Of a stretch of 10,678 nucleotides of DNA, positions 1-10,678 are shown one piece after another. How positions within the stretch are numbered: the first letter of the stretch is position 1; each line of letters starts with the position of its first letter. Position numbers and translations under genes: made by a program. Origin of the DNA: a virus (taxonomy: Duplodnaviria > Heunggongvirae > Uroviricota > Caudoviricetes); the IMG/VR virus record IMGVR_UViG_2684623081_000001. One strand, given 5' to 3'. A model generated the notes under the pieces. That model did no database searches and was not told where the DNA came from. It was given only the letters and a program-made list of their open reading frames with translations.

Positions 1-201
1 TTACCCATTGGCGCGGCTTAAGAGCTTATTTTTGAATTCACAATGGTCACGATATAACCATCTTGCTCGCCCGTGGATAACTTTGGCTTTTGGCAGGTCG
101 CCTGACTTAATCCGGTCATAGATGAAGGTTTTACCAAAGCCAGTATCAGCCATGATGAATTTCAAATCAACCAGTGAATCAGGCTGTAGTTCGTGTTGCA
201 T
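1..201 (-). CDS. torI: AlpA/Xis-family excisionase (recombination directionality factor), TorI-like, 66 aa
   Basis: 66-aa ORF whose sequence (MQHELQPDSLVDLKFIMADTGFGKTF...) I recognise as a small AlpA-type HTH protein matching TorI in size and sequence. SD-like GGAG about 9 nt upstream of the ATG at 199-201. Window starts exactly at its stop codon. Confidence 0.65.
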   Translation of the reverse strand: MQHELQPDSLVDLKFIMADTGFGKTFIYDRIKSGDLPKAKVIHGRARWLYRDHCEFKNKLLSRANG

Positions 202-332
202 GAGTGCTATCTCCGAATAGGGAATCGAACCTGCAAATCAGGTAATAAAAATACGCTCTATGACGGCGATGGTAGATCAGGATATTTTAAGAAACTGACA
301 GGCCTCATCGAGTGTGAGGCTGTATGGCTCTA

Positions 333-638
333 TTATTTCACCTCTTGTTGTGACATTGTTGAAAAATGGATACCAGCTCGTTGCTGCCAGATGATCCAAC
401 CGAGAGTCATATCCCATGCCATGTATTCGTTATCGCCGTTTTTTGCTCTCCGACGATCTACTAAGTCACCGAAACGCTTTTCCATGAATAATTCATAGGC
501 TTCGCGTTCATCTGGCTCTACTTCCAGAGATACGAGTGCGATTTCATAAGCACGGCGCTCAATATCGTCTCGAACCTCTAGGCTGCTGATTCGTTCTTTG
601 ATTTCTTTAATCAGTTCTTTATTGGTAAATGTGGTCAT
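333..638 (-). CDS. yfdT: Hypothetical prophage protein, 101 aa
   Basis: Intact ORF whose length and position match yfdT of KplE1 by synteny. Start overlaps the stop of the upstream gene (TAATG). Sequence itself not recognised. Confidence 0.5.
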   Translation of the reverse strand: MTTFTNKELIKEIKERISSLEVRDDIERRAYEIALVSLEVEPDEREAYELFMEKRFGDLVDRRRAKNGDNEYMAWDMTLGWIIWQQRAGIHFSTMSQQEVK

Positions 639-1000
639 TATGCTCCAGCCTCCGGTGCTTTTGGCATTACTGCCCAGTGAGTGATATTGACGTTTTCAAG
701 GTCCCCAACCTGAAATGTCCACTGCCATTCTCCGGTTTCTTTTTGTCCCCAGGTGTACCAGAGAGAACGCCAGCCAATCAGCCAGCCTTCTCCGTTAGCA
801 TCAAATAACAGAACACTTTCATTTGCTGGTGGCAGTTCAGCTGACACTGGTATTATTTTGTTTTCCAGTGCCGCACATTTAGCTTCAAGCGCGTCGAATT
901 TACGTACCAGGTACTCAGCATTTGTTTCGTTCACTTTCAGATCTCGCGGTACACATTTCCCGCGAAGAAACCCTTCCATTTCGAAAACATTCATGCGCAT
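638..1000 (-). CDS. yfdS: Hypothetical prophage protein, 120 aa
   Basis: Intact ORF, length and position consistent with yfdS. Overlaps the 3' end of the upstream yfdR-like gene by 10 nt, suggesting an operon. Confidence 0.5.
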   Translation of the reverse strand: MRMNVFEMEGFLRGKCVPRDLKVNETNAEYLVRKFDALEAKCAALENKIIPVSAELPPANESVLLFDANGEGWLIGWRSLWYTWGQKETGEWQWTFQVGDLENVNITHWAVMPKAPEAGA

Positions 1001-1527
1001 TTGCGTAACTCCGATAAATCGTTAAAACGTTCCATAAACATCCCGTAGGCATGACCCGGTGCCAGTGGAATCACGTTGAACATCTCTGTTGCCGGGATGC
1101 CTTCCAGTACAGGCCAGAAAGAGCCATCATCAAGCCCGAGATCACGGCGTTCGGTTGCCAGCATAATGAGATCGGCATATTTCACTGGCGTGCTCATAAC
1201 AGGAGGTAACCCGTATTTCTCACGGATTACTGCATCTATTTTTTCTTCCATCCGTTTATAGTCAGGAAGAAGGCGTTTCAGTGGTGCGGGGATGTCCTGG
1301 CAATACGCTTCTGTTGCATCATGCATTAATGCTTCAAAAGCAAATTCCTGCGGCACCAGCTGGCTGCAAAGCACCGCATGTTGGGCGACACTGTAGAAGT
1401 GAGAAAGATGACCGGCAAAGCGGCAGATATTTGAAAGGGAAACCGCGATATCGTTAATCACGATGTCGTCTTTATTTATCTTGTCATAATAAAAATGCTT
1501 CCCGGAAAAAGTTTTAATAAATGACAT
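991..1527 (-). CDS. yfdR: HD-domain phosphohydrolase, YfbR-like 5'-deoxynucleotidase, 178 aa
   Basis: His and His-Asp motifs with HD-superfamily spacing (FYSVAQHAV ... LMHDATEAY ... ERRDLGLDD). Start chosen at the internal ATG 1525-1527, which has GGAG 8 nt upstream and gives 178 aa; the ORF track's longer 187-aa start lacks an RBS. Confidence 0.7.
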   Translation of the reverse strand: MSFIKTFSGKHFYYDKINKDDIVINDIAVSLSNICRFAGHLSHFYSVAQHAVLCSQLVPQEFAFEALMHDATEAYCQDIPAPLKRLLPDYKRMEEKIDAVIREKYGLPPVMSTPVKYADLIMLATERRDLGLDDGSFWPVLEGIPATEMFNVIPLAPGHAYGMFMERFNDLSELRKCA

Positions 1528-1620
1528 TTTGTTCTCCACGTATATGCGCTGCACCGCGCTGAGTTTGGGTAAAAGGAAGCCCTCACCATCCGGTGATTAT
1601 TGAGTTAATTACGTTTCCAT

Positions 1621-1642
1621 AAATGCCCCCGCAGGGGCATTT
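1621..1642 (-). terminator. Candidate hairpin between yfdQ and yfdR (9-bp stem AAATGCCCC / GGGGCATTT, 4-nt loop)
   Basis: Perfect inverted repeat read directly from the sequence, about 12 nt downstream of the yfdQ stop on the minus strand. The following tract is only partly U-rich. Confidence 0.3.
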
Positions 1643-1654
1643 GCAGTAATGAAA

Positions 1655-2479
1655 TCAGGCGGTGAAAGTACCAATAAAGGTTTCTACTTTGCTGTCTTTG
1701 AATTTCTCAACAAGCAGATCACGAAATTCGTTAGCCATATCTTCCTGCACCGCTTCCAGCTGAATAATGCGCAGAACCAGTACAGGACGATCGCCAGTGA
1801 TAATGCTGAGGCGTAATTTAAACGGACGTTCTTTCAGACCTTCAAACGGAACGCATTTAAATTCAAATGCCACTGGCATAATGTCTTTGGTCTTCGCTTC
1901 GACAGATTCCATCAGGGAGCGTTTGCCGCTGAAGTCATTATCTTCAAAATCAGCGGTCTGGTTTGCTTCAATCGTGATTTTACGGATTGCCGCAGCCGCT
2001 TTTGTTGCCTGAATGGCGTCACCATTAGCATCAAAGCCCACAAGGTAGTCGGCCCAGTCTTCAATCCATTCTGCCAGTGATTTCTGGGAGTTACGCTCGC
2101 CGTTAACAGACAACAGGGCAGAGAACGGTGCTGTCTTTTTCAGTTTGAGAGTGGCGGTGTTATCTGCGTGACCTGGTTCATCAATAGTACCCAGGTTAAG
2201 CACACTGACGGCACGCATATTATCAGCATCGATAAAGCAGCGGGTGCCTTCATCTGCAAGATCTTTAGAATAACGGGTAAAGTCATCGATGCTGGCAGTG
2301 GAAAGCGCACCACGGAAACGGAAGCGATTTAAATTAAATTTTTCCAGATCATGAATGCGGAAATTCTCAGGCAATGCCACAGCATCGGCACCAATCTTAC
2401 TGATAATTTCATTAACACCCTGAGCAGAAATAAGGGCATGGATTTGATTAATTGCGGTTGCGTCTAAGTTCTGAGACAT
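1655..2479 (-). CDS. yfdQ: Hypothetical prophage protein, 274 aa
   Basis: Long intact ORF with GAGGA 7 nt upstream of the ATG at 2477-2479. Length and position match yfdQ by synteny. Confidence 0.55.
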
Positions 2480-2544
2480 AATAAGTCCTCACTATATTAA
2501 GATATTCAGTGATGAGATAAATAATTAGTTAATTAAGAATGATA

Positions 2545-2907
2545 TTAATGACCTGCTGCGCGGAGTTTTCCGTCAGGCTCACCGGCAAGAGTCAGTAATT
2601 GTCCCTGGTCTTCCTGCAGAATAGTCAGGCGACCACCGCGATTGACATACATCGGCGTTTCGGTGGTGTCTTCTTCGGAAATTTTCCCACGGTTAGTCGG
2701 GCGAACATATGAGAGTTTGTGTTTGATTTTCAGACGGTTCTCATCAAATGGTTCGATTTCCAGGTTGAGTGAGACCTTACCTTTGGTTTTCGTGTTCATC
2801 ACACCGGAAGCGACTTCACTGAGAACTGCGCCGATTTTGGTTTCAAATACGCCGCCGTCCAGCTCCCCGATAAATGCCTGCACATCAGTACTGCGTTCGC
2901 TAGCCAT
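2545..2907 (-). CDS. yfdP: Hypothetical prophage protein, 120 aa; first gene of the leftward block
   Basis: Start placed at the ATG 2905-2907 (MASERSTDV...), which has GAGGAG 7-8 nt upstream; the ORF track's 148-aa upstream start has no RBS. 120 aa matches yfdP. Confidence 0.55.
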   Translation of the reverse strand: MASERSTDVQAFIGELDGGVFETKIGAVLSEVASGVMNTKTKGKVSLNLEIEPFDENRLKIKHKLSYVRPTNRGKISEEDTTETPMYVNRGGRLTILQEDQGQLLTLAGEPDGKLRAAGH

Positions 2908-2993
2908 TTTGCTGCTCCTCATCATAACCGCAATGCGTCGAATGTTTATCAGCTTAACGTTGCGAAGCTTCAGGCAGCGGCATTTTCTCAACT

Positions 2994-3068
2994 GTCAGAC
3001 TCTGACCCGTCAAAATCTGACGCATCAAAATCTGACCCGTCAAAATTTGATGCGTCGAAATCTGGCAA
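2994..3068. repeat. Five tandem 15-bp iteron-like direct repeats (consensus GTCAAAATCTGACCC), each with internal GTCA-N5-TGAC dyad symmetry; degenerate copies continue to about 3145
   Basis: Units at 2994-3008, 3009-3023, 3024-3038, 3039-3053 and 3054-3068 read directly from the sequence. Further CCGTCAG-containing copies at 3084-3101, 3105-3119 and 3128-3145. Confidence 0.8.
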
Positions 3069-3264
3069 AAAATCGGGTTTTCACCCGTCAGAATCTGGCG
3101 GGGATCCGTCAGTAAAATCAAAACATGATCCGTCAGATAAAAAACCTTCTCGTCCGGACGCTTCGCAACCGGACACGCAGACGGATGAACAGGATTTTTT
3201 AACTCGCCATCCTGATGCGGTTGTATTCAGCCCTAAAAAGCGCCAGTGGGGAACGCAGGATGAT

Positions 3265-3633
3265 TTGACCTGCGCACAGTGGCTCTGGAAAAAAATCATC
3301 GCCCTGTACGAGCAGGCCGCCGAATGTGACGGCGAGGTGGTTCGTCCCAAAGAACCGAACTGGACAGCCTGGGCAAACGAAATTCGCCTGATGTGTGTGC
3401 AGGATGGTCGTACTCACAAACAAATCTGCGAGATGTACAGCCGCGTCAGCCGCGATCCGTTCTGGTGCCGTAACGTGCTCAGCCCGTCGAAGCTGCGGGA
3501 AAAATGGGATGAGCTTTCCCTGCGCTTATCGCCGTCCGTCAGCACGTACACAGAAAAACGCGAAGACCCGTACTTCAAAGCCAGTTACGACAATGTGGAC
3601 TACAGCCAGATCCCGGCAGGATTCAGGGGGTGA
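3265..3633 (+). CDS. yfdO: C-terminal fragment of a lambda O-like replication initiator (TTG start as drawn, 122 aa); probably a 5'-truncated gene
   Basis: The frame is open without any ATG/GTG/TTG from the stop at 2770-2772 to 3265 and reads through the iterons as a Ser/Asp/Pro/Lys-rich linker, as expected for an origin embedded in an initiator gene. Length matches yfdO, which I recall being annotated as a defective O-family protein. Confidence 0.55.
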   Translation: MTCAQWLWKKIIALYEQAAECDGEVVRPKEPNWTAWANEIRLMCVQDGRTHKQICEMYSRVSRDPFWCRNVLSPSKLREKWDELSLRLSPSVSTYTEKREDPYFKASYDNVDYSQIPAGFRG

Positions 3634-4124
3634 GCATGAGTCTTTTGAATGACGTTCAGAAATTCATTGAAGCCCATCCGGGCTGTACTTCCGGAGACAT
3701 TGCGGATGCTTTTGCAGGTTACTCACGGCAGCGCGTTCTGCAGTCAGCAAGCAAGTTACGTCAGAGTGGGCGTGTGGCTCACCGTTGTGAAGGAGATACA
3801 CACAGACATTTCCCGCGCCTGACTGAGAGAGCGCAGGATCCGGAACCACAACCAGTTCGTGAAACCAGACCTGTGCGCAATTTCTATGTCGGCACTAACG
3901 ACCCGCGGGTGATTTTGTGCCTGACCCGCCAGGCGGAAGAACTGGAGTCCAGGGGCTTATACCGTCGTGCTGCAACGGTGTGGATGGCGGCATTCCGTGA
4001 AAGCCACTCCCAGCCAGAACGAAACAATTTTCTGGCGCGTCGTGAACGGTGTTTACGGAAAAGCAGTAAGCGGGCTGCATCAGGTGAAGAGTGGTATCTC
4101 TCAGGGAATTACGTGGGGGCTTAA
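3630..4124 (+). CDS. yfdN: Hypothetical prophage protein, 164 aa from GTG 3630 (162 aa from ATG 3636)
   Basis: Intact ORF. AGGGGG lies 6 nt upstream of ATG 3636, so that may be the true start. The GTG start overlaps the yfdO stop (GTGA). Confidence 0.55.
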   Translation: MSMSLLNDVQKFIEAHPGCTSGDIADAFAGYSRQRVLQSASKLRQSGRVAHRCEGDTHRHFPRLTERAQDPEPQPVRETRPVRNFYVGTNDPRVILCLTRQAEELESRGLYRRAATVWMAAFRESHSQPERNNFLARRERCLRKSSKRAASGEEWYLSGNYVGA

Positions 4125-4399
4125 TGAGTAATAAATATTGCCAGGCGCTGGTGGAGCTGCGGAACAAACCAGCCCATGAACTGAAGGAAGTGGGCGATCA
4201 GTGGCGCACGCCGGACAACATTTTCTGGGGAATTAACACCCTGTTTGGCCCGTTTGTTCTGGATCTGTTTACTGATGGTGATAACGCCAAATGTGCCGCG
4301 TATTACACTGCGGAAGACAACGCGCTGGCGCATGACTGGTCAGAACGTCTTGCGGAGCTTAAAGGTGCTGCCTTTGGTAATCCCCCGTACCCGTGGTAA
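4124..4399 (+). pseudogene. yfdM: N-terminal fragment of a phage DNA N6-adenine methyltransferase, truncated just after the catalytic NPPY motif (91 aa)
   Basis: Sequence [10 protein letters not shown]...[27 protein letters not shown]...GNPPYPW followed by a stop. Phage Dam-type enzymes normally continue well beyond NPPY. ATG overlaps the yfdN stop (TAATG). Confidence 0.6.
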
Positions 4400-4448
4400 C
4401 CCCCAGACCGGCACGCCTGCCACCGATCTGGATGATGACTACTTTGAC

Positions 4449-4967
4449 ATGTTGCAGGAGGAGCTTTGCAGCGTTGTGGAGGCCTCCGGTGCCAGCCTGG
4501 AGAAGGGGCGGCATGACCAGCTGCTTACCGCGCTTCGTGCGCTGCTGTTAAGCCGCAAGAATCCGTTTGGCGATATCAAATTGGACGGCACGGTGCAAAA
4601 GGCTCTCGAAAACCTTGGTTTGGGAGAAGCGGCTAAAAGAAATGTAGGGACAGGGGCGAATCAGATACCTGATATGGGTAGTTTTATGCTTTCTGCTTCA
4701 GTTCCTGGATATCAAAAATTGCCATCCGGTTTAATTATTCAATGGGGGCCAATTGATGTTCCGCTGACGTCTCAGGACACAGTAACCTATTTTCCGATTG
4801 CATTTCCGAATAGATGTCTGCGGGTATTTGCGACTCAGGATTACACTCCCGGCAGTGCAAATGTTGGCTATATAGCTTGTGCCGGTTATAACCAGGACCC
4901 GGTGAAATTTATTTCCAGAGCAGGCGTACCCGGTATCGGTGCTTCATTTTTCGCATTAGGGTGTTAA
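4449..4967 (+). pseudogene. yfdL: C-terminal fragment of a phage side tail-fibre protein, 172 aa from an internal ATG
   Basis: Tail-fibre C-terminal-like sequence begins within a few codons of the methyltransferase truncation point. No upstream tail-fibre shaft or baseplate genes. The ORF track's 240-aa version starts inside yfdM in another frame and is an overlap artefact. Confidence 0.55.
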
Positions 4968-4993
4968 TTTCTTTTAACTTTATGGAGTGAAAA

Positions 4994-5434
4994 ATGAATT
5001 ACATATATTCCGCGACTACAAACTCTTTCTATCCCTTGGAGATGAAAGAGGATTACACGCAAGCTGGCTCATGGCCAGATGATGCTGTTGAAGTTGATGA
5101 GCAAGTGTATATTGAGTTTTCCGGATTACCGCCGAAAGGAAAAATCCGTATCGCTGGAGAAAATGGTTTTCCTGCATGGTCTGAAATTCCACCACCAACA
5201 CATGAGGAACAGATTGCTGCAGCCGAACTGAAAAAGCAGCAATTGATTAATCAGGCCAACGATTATATGAACAGTAAACAATGGGCTGGTAAAGCGGCTA
5301 TTGGTCGTCTGAAAGGTGAGGAACTGGCGCAATATAATTTGTGGCTGGATTATCTGGACGCACTGGAGCTGGTCGATACTTCCAGTGCGCCAGATATTGA
5401 ATGGCCTACTCCTCCGGCAGTTCAGGCCAGATGA
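4994..5434 (+). CDS. yfdK: Tail-fibre assembly protein (Tfa family), 146 aa
   Basis: C-terminal DTSSAPDIEWPTPP motif characteristic of lambda Tfa-like chaperones. GGAGTG 6 nt upstream of the ATG. Confidence 0.7.
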   Translation: MNYIYSATTNSFYPLEMKEDYTQAGSWPDDAVEVDEQVYIEFSGLPPKGKIRIAGENGFPAWSEIPPPTHEEQIAAAELKKQQLINQANDYMNSKQWAGKAAIGRLKGEELAQYNLWLDYLDALELVDTSSAPDIEWPTPPAVQAR

Positions 5435-5750
5435 CATCCGGCGCGGTGCTGGTATCTGTTGCCGTCACCGCGTCAATGTAATCCAGCACAGTGTTAAGTC
5501 GGGAGGTCTCTGCCTGCATCAGCTTCCGCCCAGCCTGTAATTTCAGTTGAATCAGACTAATGGAAGCCATTGCAGTATCAATCAGCGACTGGCGCTGTGC
5601 TTCTGCTGCATCTACTGCGACGCTATGCTGTGCCTCGGTATCCGTCACCCATTTCTCACCATCCCATTTATCGTATGGCGTTAATGGGGCGATAGTCGCG
5701 GGACGCATACAAACATAACCCCTGGATGTTATGTGTCTATCGAGAATCAA
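5406..5750 (-). pseudogene. tfaS: Tail-fibre assembly protein fragment (C-terminal half only), convergent with and overlapping yfdK
   Basis: Aligns by eye to the C-terminal half of lambda Tfa (YDKWDGEKWVTDTEAQ ... DTSTAPDVIWPELP). N-terminal half absent; ORF as drawn starts at TTG. Confidence 0.6.
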
Positions 5751-6018
5751 AGTGGAAGTCCTTATGTTAAGTATAAGACAGGAATCACTTATAACGATAA
5801 TCAGTTAGTATATGTATCTATCACTGTTGATGATAATATCAGCACTTGGTTCTGGAGGGGGTTTGTTGTGGGCAATGATGCATTTAAGTTATCGTCTGCA
5901 GATAGAGGAGATATTACAATAAACAACGAATCAGGGCATTTGATAGTCAATACCGCAATTCTATCAGGAGATATAGTCACTCTAAGAGGAGGAGAAATTA
6001 GGTTGGTATTATAGCTTG

Positions 6019-6040
6019 TGCGCGCCATGATTGGCGCGCA
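6019..6040 (-). terminator. GC-rich hairpin (9-bp stem TGCGCGCCA / TGGCGCGCA, loop TGAT) 9 nt downstream of the yfdI stop
   Basis: Perfect inverted repeat read from the sequence, sitting at the 3' end of the gtr operon. No clear U-tract on either strand, so terminator function is uncertain. Confidence 0.35.
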
Positions 6041-6048
6041 ATTTAAAC

Positions 6049-7380
6049 TTAGTGCTTTACATCGCTATTGTCTTGATTTCTTTGAATTATTTTATAAATT
6101 AAAAAAACGACTGTTATGTATAAGCAAAGGTCGAACGAAAAATACATTCCAAATAAATGCTTGCTTAAATCTCTATATCCTTCCCCGAAAAATGACACAT
6201 AAAATTGAGATATTCCAAAAAGAGATACTACAAATAAAGATGCCTTTATTTTATTATTTCTAATAAAAATAGAAGCAATAAAAAATAATAACAATGATAT
6301 AAATCTAATGTTTTTAAATATATTGTCTTTTATGTTAGTAATAGTCGTTAGTATGTTTGATTCTCCATATATTACGTGTAGTTTTTTATATACATGGAAA
6401 TAATTTTCTTTATACTGAGACATCACACCATCATCAAATGGAAGTTTGAAGATGGTGCTTGGTTTGCTAACCAATAAAAAGAGTGCATTCGAAAACGTTT
6501 CATCTTTATGAGATTCGAAACATTCCGTTCCAACTTCTGTTGGGGTTGCGCCAAATGATATGTCGAATTTATTACCCCAGGCATCTAACCCAACACACTT
6601 ATCATCAACATACGATGGCATTTTATACCCGTTGTTTTTCATATAAAGATAACTACCGAAGTATGTTGCATGGTACTTATTTAATTCAACAACACCTTTT
6701 GAATAAGATATTGCAAATATTGACGCAAGCAAGCACACCACGCATATTACAGATTTAATAATTAGTTTGTGTCTATCAAAAAAAATATAATATGAATACA
6801 CTATTAGTGGGGTTAATATAAATTGATTTTTAGCAGTAGATATTATTAGCAACGAAAAAAATAGCAAAAGCATAGATTTATTGTTTTTGCATGTTAATGA
6901 ATACACCAAAAATGGAAGGAAAATTATAACTATTTGCTCTTGATAGAATGATGCAAACATTGACAGTGTTGATGAAGAACACATAAGAAAAGCTAAAATA
7001 AAGAATGTAAATAAAGTTACATACCTTTCTGTTTTTATATATGAAGTAAATATCGCATATAATGAATAAATATATATTACTTTTAGAAATAACGATAACA
7101 CCCTAGCATCAAGATATTCAGTAAAAATGCTAATAAACAGGACGTATGTATACAAAATATAACTATATGAACTTATATACTCATAGCTATCAATTGAATC
7201 AATATGACCTTTCAATTTATACAATAAAGGTAAGTCATATGTAAATGCTGGTATGTCTTCAATTAATGGCTTAATGGCTCTTCCGAAATCAGATGTATTT
7301 AACATCATTATGTTTTTAGATAAGGCGCAAATAATCAAAACAAAAGATATATACAATGATACTTTTATTGCTTTATTCAT
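6049..7380 (-). CDS. yfdI: Polytopic membrane protein, putative serotype-specific O-antigen glucosyltransferase (GtrS-like), 443 aa
   Basis: Third gene of a gtrA-gtrB-gtrX arrangement. Very AT-rich and highly hydrophobic with many predicted transmembrane segments. Start overlaps the yfdH stop (ATGA). Size matches yfdI. Confidence 0.7.
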
Positions 7381-8297
7381 TTTTTGACTCTCTTGATGAT
7401 GTATTTCGGGCGTTTTTTGGTTTCAATGTATGTGCGTCCAATATATTCACCTAATACTCCTATTCCAATCATCTGAATTCCACCTAAAAACAGTATTGAA
7501 ACAAGTAGTGAAGGATATCCCCTAACAGCATTTCCAAATATGATAGTATCTAAAATCATCCACGCCCCATAAATAAATGCTACACTGGCTACCACTAACC
7601 CTATGTATGTCCAGATGCGAAGAGGGAATGTGGAAAAGCTTGTAATACCCTCAAGTGCTAAATTCCAAAGTTTCCATCCATTAAATTTTGTATCTCCAGC
7701 AATTCTTTCCGCTCGCACGTATTCAACAATATCTGTCTTTCCTCCTACCCAGCTCAGAATACCTTTCATGAAAAGGTTTCGTTCTGGCATAAGTTTAATA
7801 TTTTCGACAACATCACGGCTCATCAGCCTGAAATCACCAACATTCTCTTCAATTTTAGGATTGCTTATTTTATTGTGGAGCTTATAGAACCACTCAGCCG
7901 TTTTTCGCTTCAGGCGTCCATCAGTTGAGCGGTCAGATCTTTTAGCAAGAACCATATCAGCACCTGCTTGCCATTTTTCAATAAGATGAGGAATAACCTC
8001 AATCGGGTCTTGCAGGTCAACATCAATTGGGATTATCGCATCCCCGGTTGCATGGTCTAACCCTGCAAACAATGCTGGTTCTTTACCAAAGTTGCGTGTA
8101 AATGACAGCGGAACAACTAGAGGATCTGAAACAGCCAGAGCATTAATGATTGACTCCGTAGCGTCTTTGCTGCCGTCATTTATGAAAACGATTTCCACTT
8201 CATATGACTTCAATTCTTCGAATTCACGTACCGTTTTATAAAAAATTGGTATCGCTTCTTCTTCATTGAAGACAGGAACTACAAGAGATATCTTCAT
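7377..8297 (-). CDS. yfdH: Bactoprenol glucosyltransferase (GT2 family, GtrB-like), 306 aa
   Basis: N-terminal GT2 signature ([26 protein letters not shown]) and C-terminal transmembrane segments. Start overlaps the yfdG stop (ATGA). Confidence 0.85.
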
Positions 8298-8656
8298 TTC
8301 GCATCCCTAAAGACAATGAACTTTGAATAGACGAAACCGCACACCAGGCTGATGGCGGAGAAGGTGACAAGAGTTATCATCGGGGGAAGTGCGCATCTAT
8401 CAGCAGCCCATCCAACAGTAGCACTCAGTGTCCCCATGAACCCAACATATAGCATGTAGCGCATCGTTGTAGTCGATGCCTTGAATGTGAATTTTGCATT
8501 CGCGAAGAAGCTAAAGCTCACAGCCACAACGAAACCTGCGAAGTTTGCAAGAGCTTGGTTTGTATGCGCGACATAGATACAAACACCAAAAACCACCCAG
8601 TGTATAAGGGTGTTCAGCACACCAATAGAGGTGTACTTTGCAAATAGCTTTAACAT
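8294..8656 (-). CDS. yfdG: GtrA-like small membrane protein (bactoprenol-linked glucose flippase), 120 aa
   Basis: 120-aa hydrophobic protein with about four predicted transmembrane segments, first gene of the gtr operon. Confidence 0.8.
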
Positions 8657-8808
8657 TTCTTCTATCAGCTAATAATCAAAGGAATGAAGTCTATCATCCA
8701 AGTCTTAATCGATCGATACTTGCTGTGGTTGATGAGACAAAACTTATACACACAAAGCTTTGCACTGGATTGCAAGACTTTGTGCTATTCGATAGTTGTT
8801 AAGGTCGC

Positions 8809-8871
8809 TCACTCCACCTTCTCATCAAGCCAGTCCGCCCATGAAGTCAGCCCCATACGATATAAGTTGTT
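8809..8871 (-). pseudogene. intS: Probable 3' remnant of the prophage integrase (last ~20 codons), truncated by cassette insertion
   Basis: The minus-strand frame ends at a stop at 8809-8811, about 152 bp upstream of the gtrA start, matching the expected integrase-gtrA spacing. Upstream, the frame runs straight into vector sequence at the SpeI site 8872-8877. Assignment is by synteny only. Confidence 0.4.
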
Positions 8872-8892
8872 ACTAGTGCTTGGATTCTCACC

Positions 8893-8921
8893 AATAAAAA
8901 ACGCCCGGCGGCAACCGAGCG
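8893..8921 (-). terminator. Phage lambda t0 intrinsic terminator, oriented to stop the cat transcript
   Basis: Minus-strand hairpin CGCUCGG-UUGCCG-CCGGGCG followed by UUUUUUAUU. The flanking 79 nt (8893-8971, minus) match my recollection of lambda oop RNA. Confidence 0.85.
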
Positions 8922-8998
8922 TTCTGAACAAATCCAGATGGAGTTCTGAGGTCATTACTGGATCTATCAACAGGAGTCCAAGCGAGCTCGATATCAAA

Positions 8999-9658
8999 TT
9001 ACGCCCCGCCCTGCCACTCATCGCAGTACTGTTGTAATTCATTAAGCATTCTGCCGACATGGAAGCCATCACAAACGGCATGATGAACCTGAATCGCCAG
9101 CGGCATCAGCACCTTGTCGCCTTGCGTATAATATTTGCCCATGGTGAAAACGGGGGCGAAGAAGTTGTCCATATTGGCCACGTTTAAATCAAAACTGGTG
9201 AAACTCACCCAGGGATTGGCTGAGACGAAAAACATATTCTCAATAAACCCTTTAGGGAAATAGGCCAGGTTTTCACCGTAACACGCCACATCTTGCGAAT
9301 ATATGTGTAGAAACTGCCGGAAATCGTCGTGGTATTCGCTCCAGAGCGATGAAAACGTTTCAGTTTGCTCATGGAAAACGGTGTAACAAGGGTGAACACT
9401 ATCCCATATCACCAGCTCACCGTCTTTCATTGCCATACGGAATTCCGGATGAGCATTCATCAGGCGGGCAAGAATGTGAATAAAGGCCGGATAAAACTTG
9501 TGCTTATTTTTCTTTACGGTCTTTAAAAAGGCCGTAATATCCAGCTGAACGGTCTGGTTATAGGTACATTGAGCAACTGACTGAAATGCCTCAAAATGTT
9601 CTTTACGATGCCATTGGGATATATCAACGGTGGTATATCCAGTGATTTTTTTCTCCAT
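8999..9658 (-). CDS. cat: Chloramphenicol acetyltransferase, type I (Tn9/pACYC184-type), 219 aa
   Basis: Full-length sequence recognised ([25 protein letters not shown] ... [28 protein letters not shown]). Confidence 0.97.
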
Positions 9659-9790
9659 TTTAGCTTCCTTAGCTCCTGAAAATCTCGATAACTCAAAAAA
9701 TACGCCCGGTAGTGATCTTATTTCATTATGGTGAAAGTTGGAACCTCTTACGTGCCGATCAACGTCTCATTTTCGCCAGATATCGACGTC
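9659..9790 (-). promoter_or_regulatory. cat promoter and 5'UTR (Tn9/pACYC184-derived), up to the AatII site
   Basis: Minus-strand sequence ACGTTGATCGGCACGTAAGAGGTTCCAACTTTCACCATAATGAAATAAGATCACTACCGGGCGTATTTTTTGAGTTATCGAGATTTTCAGGAGCTAAGGAAGCTAAA immediately precedes the cat ATG. Confidence 0.9.
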
Positions 9791-9865
9791 TAAGAAACCA
9801 TTATTATCGTGACATTAACCTATAAAAATAGGCGTATCACGAGGCCCTTTCGTCTTCACCTCGAG

Positions 9866-9925
9866 GATAAATATCTAACACCGTGCGTGTTGACTATTTT
9901 ACCTCTGGCGGTGATAATGGTTGCA
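9866..9925 (+). promoter_or_regulatory. Phage lambda PR promoter with operators OR2 (9876-9892) and OR1 (9900-9916); OR3 truncated at the XhoI site
   Basis: -35 TTGACT at 9890-9895, 17-bp spacer, -10 GATAAT at 9913-9918, expected start at A 9925. Operator sequences TAACACCGTGCGTGTTG and TACCTCTGGCGGTGATA recognised. Confidence 0.92.
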
Positions 9926-9938
9926 TGTACTAGAATTC

Positions 9939-10678
<740 letters not shown>

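Follow-up and report, generated by a model that had tools for sequence, protein, structure and literature searches.

Why do two tail-fibre assembly genes, yfdK on the plus strand and tfaS on the minus strand, run towards each other and share their last bases in a piece of viral DNA? The DNA analysed here, called the window throughout, is a stretch of 10,678 nucleotides from an IMG/VR virus record, and an initial annotation had likened the pair to the invertible segments G of Mu, C of P1 and P of e14, proposing a decayed host-range switch. We conclude, with a probability of about 0.88, that what survives is the left half of a segment of the Pin/Gin/Cin type, and that its other half was probably replaced by DNA of a P22-like phage before the deletion that joined yfdM to yfdL.

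The prophage in the window

Positions 1-8841 of the window are 100% identical to Escherichia coli K-12 strain ER1709 and represent the cryptic prophage CPS-53 (KplE1), running from torI to the final 33 nt of intS. From 8842 to 10678 an engineered cassette stands in place of intS, of which only those last 33 nt were kept; the DNA thus stems from a laboratory strain that had been marked, and not from wild-type K-12. The features of this cassette are the following:

8999-9658, minus strand: chloramphenicol acetyltransferase gene
about 9880-9960: lambda-PR-like promoter and synthetic ribosome-binding site
9962-10678, plus strand: GFP gene, reaching the end of the window

The yfdO' pseudogene region of the prophage (replication-protein-like, HTH) contains, at about 2990-3115, tandem 'CAAAATCTGAC(C/G)CGT'-like repeats, which resemble the origin iterons inside lambdoid O genes.

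The convergent chaperone genes

The features on which the question turns are:

4994-5434, plus strand: yfdK, intact tail-fibre assembly chaperone of the cassette of the variable fibre end Sv (Caudo_TAP, full length)
5406-5696, minus strand: tfaS', the C-terminal 96 codons of a second, convergent Tfa (residues 105-200 of 200)
5381-5500: conserved block over both Tfa C-termini, including the overlap 5406-5434, where both strands are coding

The product of yfdK has 146 aa and ends in ...DIEWPTPPAVQAR, and the mechanical open reading frame of tfaS (5406-5750, minus strand) encodes 114 aa ending in ...DVIWPELPEE. The ORF coordinates bear out the description of two convergent genes that both end in the WPxxP motif and overlap by 29 nt (5406-5434), and both products belong to the family Caudo_TAP (Pfam PF02413), above its gathering cutoff of 22.1 bits. 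For yfdK the match covers the whole profile (1.9e-39, 135 bits) and the homologues in the E. coli BH100 prophage and in phage vB_EcoM-720R4 (hereafter 720R4) cover the same 441 nt; for tfaS' it covers profile positions 34-131 of 131 only (7.2e-25, 88 bits), and RefSeq already marks tfaS as a pseudogene without N-terminus. Alignment with relatives and megablast end-points place the end of the Tfa homology of tfaS at 5696, and the rest of the frame (5697-5750) is antisense to the remnant of a different gene. What is left of tfaS corresponds, with 97% identity, to residues 105-200 of the 200-aa Tfa' of 720R4. The span first proposed for the segment, 4449-5750, does contain both genes, but its limits have to be moved on both sides: the right one to 5696, and the left one from 4449, which is the annotated ATG of yfdL, to 4389, where the fibre-gene remnant truly starts.

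The window was aligned with four relatives, namely the BH100 prophage, an O157:H7 prophage, phage 720R4 and Shigella phage SfIV. All four have this convergent Tfa pair, again with the 29-nt overlap, and the arrangement in the window is therefore not due to chance. The block 5381-5500 is 92-100% identical in every one of them, also in those whose neighbouring cassettes reach only about 45-70%, and an imperfect inverted repeat is present at 5344-5361 and 5470-5487. This conservation agrees with a coding constraint that acts on the two strands; moreover the block, like the constant part of the fibre gene and the crossover site, is likely to serve as a homologous-recombination anchor for cassette exchange. 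These approximately 120 nt are the most conserved stretch of the region, also seen in a 28.8-kb IMG/VR predicted viral contig (L011).

The fibre gene and its crossover site

Upstream of yfdK the fibre gene yfdL is divided as follows:

4389-4602, plus strand: constant part (Sc) of yfdL', starting with codon 22; 94% identity to its counterparts in 720R4, the O157 prophage and SfIV
4603-4628: surviving left crossover site of the Pin/Gin type, CTCTCGAAAACC-TT-GGTTTGGGAGAA, read in frame within the fibre gene
4629-4967, plus strand: the fibre gene's variable end (Sv) for receptor binding (Pfam Gp53-like_C, 5e-18)

Crossover repeats had been suggested to lie in 4390-4460 and 5700-5800. None was found in these two intervals; the site is at 4603-4628, inside yfdL. 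Its full sequence, CTCTCGAAAACCTTGGTTTGGGAGAA, encodes ..ALENLGLGE.. and, when up to 3 mismatches are allowed, occurs just once in the window, 0 occurrences being expected by chance. The right half of the site agrees with the e14 P-segment repeat TTGGTTTGGGAGAAGG in 15 of 16 bases, and the e14 P segment, which has the same repeat core, inverts experimentally (PMC12529663). The constant part also matches stfP of e14.

The site is 96-100% conserved in all relatives compared. The four aligned relatives are near-identical through it and diverge directly 3' of it, which places the site, in frame, at the constant/variable boundary of the fibre gene. Sv is 99-100% identical to BH100 and 720R4, versus about 46-54% to O157 and SfIV, and it is fixed in the expressed orientation. 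According to the per-region identities, the relatives separate after the site and come together again at the 120-nt block of the Tfa termini, and this mosaic is precisely the one of a cassette system.

Intact relatives of the segment

The BH100 prophage is 97% identical to the window over 4551-5687. Both BH100 and O157:H7 have the order fibre gene, Tfa, full-length convergent Tfa' (197-200 aa), a second promoterless fibre end (Sv') and pinE. In both, the top-scoring inverted repeat has a left arm homologous to window positions 4610-4627 and a right arm, TCTCCCAAACCAACGTTT, just upstream of pinE at 1816-1863 bp from the left one. The site in yfdL shares its core with these repeats. In the intact relatives the central dinucleotide reads TT in the left site and AA in the right one (plus strand), as required for sites in inverted orientation. 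The crossover-site repeats and the neighbouring invertase that were expected in relatives are thus both present, the repeats flanking the BH100 and O157 segments and a pin-type invertase gene lying immediately beyond tfa'-Sv'.

Two further phages extend this picture. SKA5 shares the Mu-like baseplate genes and continues with Stf-Tfa-Tfa'-Sv'-invertase-dinI-integrase, and the P2-like phage of O157:H43 T22 carries a yfdK-like cassette in the invertase-proximal position. Over the shared cassette and/or the tfa-tfa' block, the intact relatives (SKA5, BH100, O157 and O157:H43 T22) are 86-100% identical to the window at the nucleotide level, and for BH100, O157 and SKA5 the figure over the parts in common is 90-100%. 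The window lacks what all of them possess, namely Sv', a site on the right and a gene for a DNA invertase. The parts that the window does have are homologous to complete, site-flanked and invertase-linked segments with 86-100% nucleotide identity (BH100, 720R4, O157). The proposed descent from a segment of the Mu G, P1 C and e14 type is supported by the site in yfdL together with these complete relatives.

We infer, from homology and from e14, that the intact relatives function as switches. In such a switch a serine invertase would recombine two 26-bp sites in inverted orientation, one in the fibre gene at the constant/variable boundary and the other beyond the second, promoterless variable end. 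The flip of a segment of about 1.85 kb would exchange the variable end and the matching Tfa chaperone joined to the constant part, and the host range would be changed.

Phage 720R4 shares with the prophage the yfdP, yfdQ and yfdR-like early genes in addition to the fibre cassette, and its gene content shows what the CPS-53 progenitor may have looked like.

What the switch has lost

Instead of two full convergent cassettes, the window has one (4629-5434) and the 3' 96 codons of the second Tfa gene; the first 104 codons of tfa' and the whole of Sv' are absent. No second crossover site was found in the window or in the 12.4 kb of K-12 CPS-53, either at up to 3 mismatches or with a loosened core pattern. 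A tblastn search with the PinE of BH100 gave no match at E<=10, neither in the window nor anywhere in K-12 CPS-53, and the same query recovers the BH100 and O157 loci at 96-100%. An invertase is also absent from the RefSeq annotation of CPS-53. The earlier statement that the second variable region and the invertase are missing is therefore correct. The serine invertase gene of known fibre switches also carries the recombinational enhancer. Lacking half of tfa', Sv', the right site, the invertase and the enhancer that belongs to it, the switch cannot invert. The CPS-53 locus is a fossil of a Pin/Gin/Cin-type fibre switch by logic and descent, not a working member.

The right joint and the tailspike remnant

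To the right of tfaS' the window contains:

5696/5697: right break-point, where tfa' is joined to the 3' remnant of a tailspike gene and all homology to invertible segments ends
5697-6014, plus strand: last approximately 105 codons of a P22-type tailspike gene, in a frame open from 5685
6049-8656, minus strand: gtr-type O-antigen glucosylation module yfdI, yfdH and yfdG (RefSeq names), of low GC (24-43%, against 52-57% to the left)

At 5696/5697 the identity to all relatives falls from 86-95% to 24-37%, and the GC content from about 54% to 24-38%. The AT-rich DNA beside tfaS, which had been taken as consistent with a truncated switch, is not featureless: it holds the tailspike remnant and the gtr module. 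Beyond the point equivalent to 5696, BH100 diverges from 720R4, O157 and SfIV. The possibility that 5696 is a mere domain boundary of Tfa was rejected: 720R4, O157 and SfIV can be aligned with one another beyond this point, and the window aligns with none of them.

With the 93-aa ORF as query, a word-indexed protein search brought up nothing but near-identical short proteins, and the tailspikes became visible only by exhaustive phmmer against 1.84 billion proteins. In that search, proteins of 519-862 aa matched by their extreme C-termini, with E down to 9e-19. The best match (P0005, E 9e-19) carries the P22 domain PF09008 (Head_binding) at residues 1-112, and the remnant aligns to its last approximately 105 residues; other tailspike matches have Tail_spike_N or beta-helix regions. 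Along its whole length, the product of 5697-6014 shows 36-37% identity to the very C-terminal ends of two proteins, a podovirus beta-helix fibre and a P22-like tailspike, the podovirus protein being a "tail fiber" with Pfam Beta_helix (36% identity). The C-terminal domain is thus homologous to that of tailspikes with the P22 head-binding domain; the N-terminal head-binding domain and the beta-helix body are absent, and the frame begins at the 5696/5697 joint. With no more than the last approximately 105 codons left, it is a remnant rather than a gene. A P22-like viral contig (L014) encodes a 638-aa tailspike that has this C-terminus, and immediately adjacent to it an integrase with 61% identity to IntS.

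We also considered the DNA from 5697 onward as the missing Sv'. This was rejected, as the frame is on the plus strand (Sv' would be on the minus strand) and matches tailspike termini, not gp53-like fibre ends.

The gtr module sits where the intact relatives have Sv', the invertase and other cargo, with intS beyond it. A 100-bp stretch of the module is 76% identical to gtrIV of SfIV, and the order yfdI-yfdH-yfdG-intS is that of gtrIV-gtrB-gtrA-int in SfIV.

The left joint and the order of events

The left limit of the fibre gene is a second joint:

4388-4390: left deletion joint of CPS-53, where yfdM' is fused to a tail-fibre gene without its first 21 codons

Homologues of yfdM match until 4390 and those of the fibre gene begin at 4388, so that 3 bp (TAC) are common to both parents of the joint; in the alignments the window departs from intact fibre genes just upstream of ACCCGTGG. 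The yfdM' product is a truncated Dam-type methyltransferase (Pfam Dam positions 3-69 of 169), cut directly after the NPPY motif and joined to fibre codon 22. The lysis, head and tail genes are all absent between yfdM' and yfdL', and this is the deletion that rendered CPS-53 cryptic.

Two histories of the locus were compared. The second half and the invertase could have been deleted within the K-12 lineage, during the erosion by which CPS-53 became cryptic, leaving a pre-existing gtr module adjacent to tfaS'. CPS-53 has indeed suffered at least one large deletion, the one at 4388-4390; the K-12-type arrangement occurs in only about 362-365 of 5426 complete E. coli genomes, and CPS-53 has been stated to be confined to K-12 strains (PMC7498339). 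However, alignment revealed the identical tfaS'/tailspike' joint in contig L011, which has an intact Mu-like baseplate (gp44-48 families), another Sv-tfa cassette than CPS-53, and a fibre gene that is complete at 226 aa and contains the crossover site. Because the same joint is present in L011, the 5696/5697 joint is older than the deletion of the morphogenesis genes, and the loss of the second half predates the yfdM'/yfdL' joint. Furthermore, the DNA to the right of the joint is a truncated podovirus-type gene, a better fit to recombination between two phage types. We therefore consider a deletion within K-12 unlikely.

The truncation is common to a contig with an intact tail module, and module replacement in a phage ancestor therefore fits better than decay in K-12. 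The word decayed is apt in so far as half of the switch was lost, but the loss is better described as a replacement, which probably took place in a phage ancestor. The ancestor would have been a temperate myovirus of the SfIV/SKA5/e14 kind with a Mu-like tail. While the phage was still complete, illegitimate recombination with a P22-like phage would have put the terminal part of the latter, 'tailspike 3' end - gtr - int', in place of the missing half. What the window retains is the constant part short of its first 21 codons, the left site, the complete Sv-Tfa cassette yfdL-yfdK and the 3' half of the second Tfa gene (tfaS'). The yfdM/yfdL deletion of the morphogenesis genes would later have turned the phage into a cryptic prophage. 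After the loss of the half switch, the remaining cassette continued to be exchanged between relatives.

A scan of genome contigs with the tailspike remnant as query gave K-12-type genomes only. No donor for 5697-6048 was found at the DNA level in phages or E. coli genomes, where this stretch occurs only together with the 5696/5697 joint, and for this reason the direction and mechanism of the replacement are something we can only infer.

The most economical reading is that P22-like phages have repeatedly contributed 'tailspike 3' end - gtr' DNA to the space between fibre module and int of this myovirus family, displacing the invertase half. A fuller account would be that the switch was traded in a viable SfIV-like myovirus, where illegitimate recombination within tfa' and within a P22-like tailspike gene gave up the second fibre end and the invertase for a tailspike 3' end and a gtr module (with int, perhaps), that similar exchanges happened independently at least twice (CPS-53 and SfIV, with unrelated remnants), and that the leftover tailspike C-terminus was co-opted as the small protein YodE; we see this account as evenly poised between right and wrong.

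Possible use of the orphan site

An extension, much less likely, is that the orphan site is still used in trans by the Pin invertases of K-12. PinE, PinQ or PinR would then act on the yfdL site together with cryptic nearby sites or those of e14. The site is intact, its core is identical to that of sites used by Pin, and K-12 encodes three Pin invertases that all invert the e14 segment (PMC12529663). Nevertheless, the searches of the window and of the 12.4 kb of K-12 CPS-53, loosened core included, gave no partner site, and no enhancer-bearing invertase gene is present in cis. Hin/Gin invertases need the enhancer and a defined synapse topology, and very distant sites are strongly disfavoured. 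A BLAST survey that included a CPS-53 query found inversions only in e14 (PMC12529663), and we hold such use of the yfdL site to be highly improbable. An orphan Pin site in the K-12 reference genome is all the same worth knowing, because K-12 has three Pin invertases.

That yfdK and tfaS came from unrelated tail modules and were never part of an invertible segment is effectively refuted already: Tfa genes are indeed common and mobile among E. coli prophages, and 3648 of 5426 genomes have a match to some part of the region, but the same pair, with its 29-nt overlap and 92-100% identity, lies within complete site-flanked segments beside invertases, and the upstream fibre gene has kept its crossover site.

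Comparison with known systems

The closest relative among the known systems is the P segment of e14 with PinE (stfP-tfaP / tfaE-stfE, pin), with which the site core TTGGTTTGGGAGAAG is shared in 15 of 16 bases. In e14, stfP is homologous to the constant part of yfdL and the convergent Tfa pair is the same, several tfaS homologues being named tfaE in RefSeq. While e14 has both sites, both cassettes and the invertase, and inverts, CPS-53 is left with a single site and one and a half cassettes and lacks the invertase. The G segment of Mu (Gin) and the C segment of P1 (Cin) share the same logic, in which the fibre is split at the crossover site and two sets, S-U and U'-S', converge; in addition, a Mu-like baseplate (homologues of Mup43-48) lies upstream in the phage family of CPS-53. 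These two are complete, experimentally proven switches, whereas CPS-53 retains only the left half.

Shigella phage SfIV (ORF-21 and ORF-22) is of the same phage type and has the same order as CPS-53: fibre, Tfa, convergent truncated Tfa', C-terminal remnant of a tailspike, gtr(type)-gtrB-gtrA and int. Its tfa', however, is cut at a different point, by ISEhe3, and neither its tailspike remnant nor its type-specific gtr gene is related to the counterpart in CPS-53. Between ISEhe3 and gtrIV of SfIV there is an unannotated frame of 203 codons (8688-9299, plus strand). This frame matches the C-terminal 168 positions of the tailspike family phrog_17420 (5e-77) and is 70% identical to a Providencia phage fibre. 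The extra Tfa gene of SfIV (ORF-22) was noted by the authors as unique among the Shigella serotype-converting phages and left without explanation (PMC3851460). In the literature searched, the arrangement of CPS-53 or SfIV was not found described as a truncated invertible segment, nor was the orphan site mentioned, though the conclusion that the switch is truncated is straightforward for a phage specialist.

The known workings of invertible segments are unchanged by the finding in CPS-53. It does explain three oddly annotated K-12 genes, yfdL, yfdK and tfaS, as one unit, and it identifies the space between fibre module and integrase in this phage family as a point of exchange, where host-range switches and O-antigen modification modules take each other's place. 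Both kinds of module address the cell-surface receptor.

The small protein YodE

The tailspike remnant presumably arose in the same recombination that truncated the switch, and it contains one further feature:

5868-6014, plus strand: YodE, a 48-aa toxic small protein on the RyeG RNA (Pfam PF23504, RefSeq)

YodE was described as a toxic small protein encoded on the 199-nt RyeG RNA (Hör et al. 2020, PMC7498339). Comparison of the frames suggests that YodE is the in-frame C-terminal 48 residues of the tailspike remnant, and no link of YodE or RyeG to a tailspike was found in the literature searched. An origin from a tailspike would give this exceptionally toxic protein a concrete evolutionary source and a structural hypothesis. 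This link is peripheral to the question of the switch, but we regard it as a more interesting result than the fossil itself, and it may be of wider use.

Because no Rfam family matched (gathering thresholds, positions 4000-6500), RyeG is placed only roughly, at 5846-6044, from the description in PMC7498339. A scan for promoter and terminator consensus sequences gave counts not above those of shuffled sequences and was left unused. An extended -10-like element, TGnTAATAT, is present at 5831-5839 within the tailspike remnant, and a GC-rich hairpin at 6019-6040 just after it; from the description in PMC7498339 both presumably belong to RyeG.
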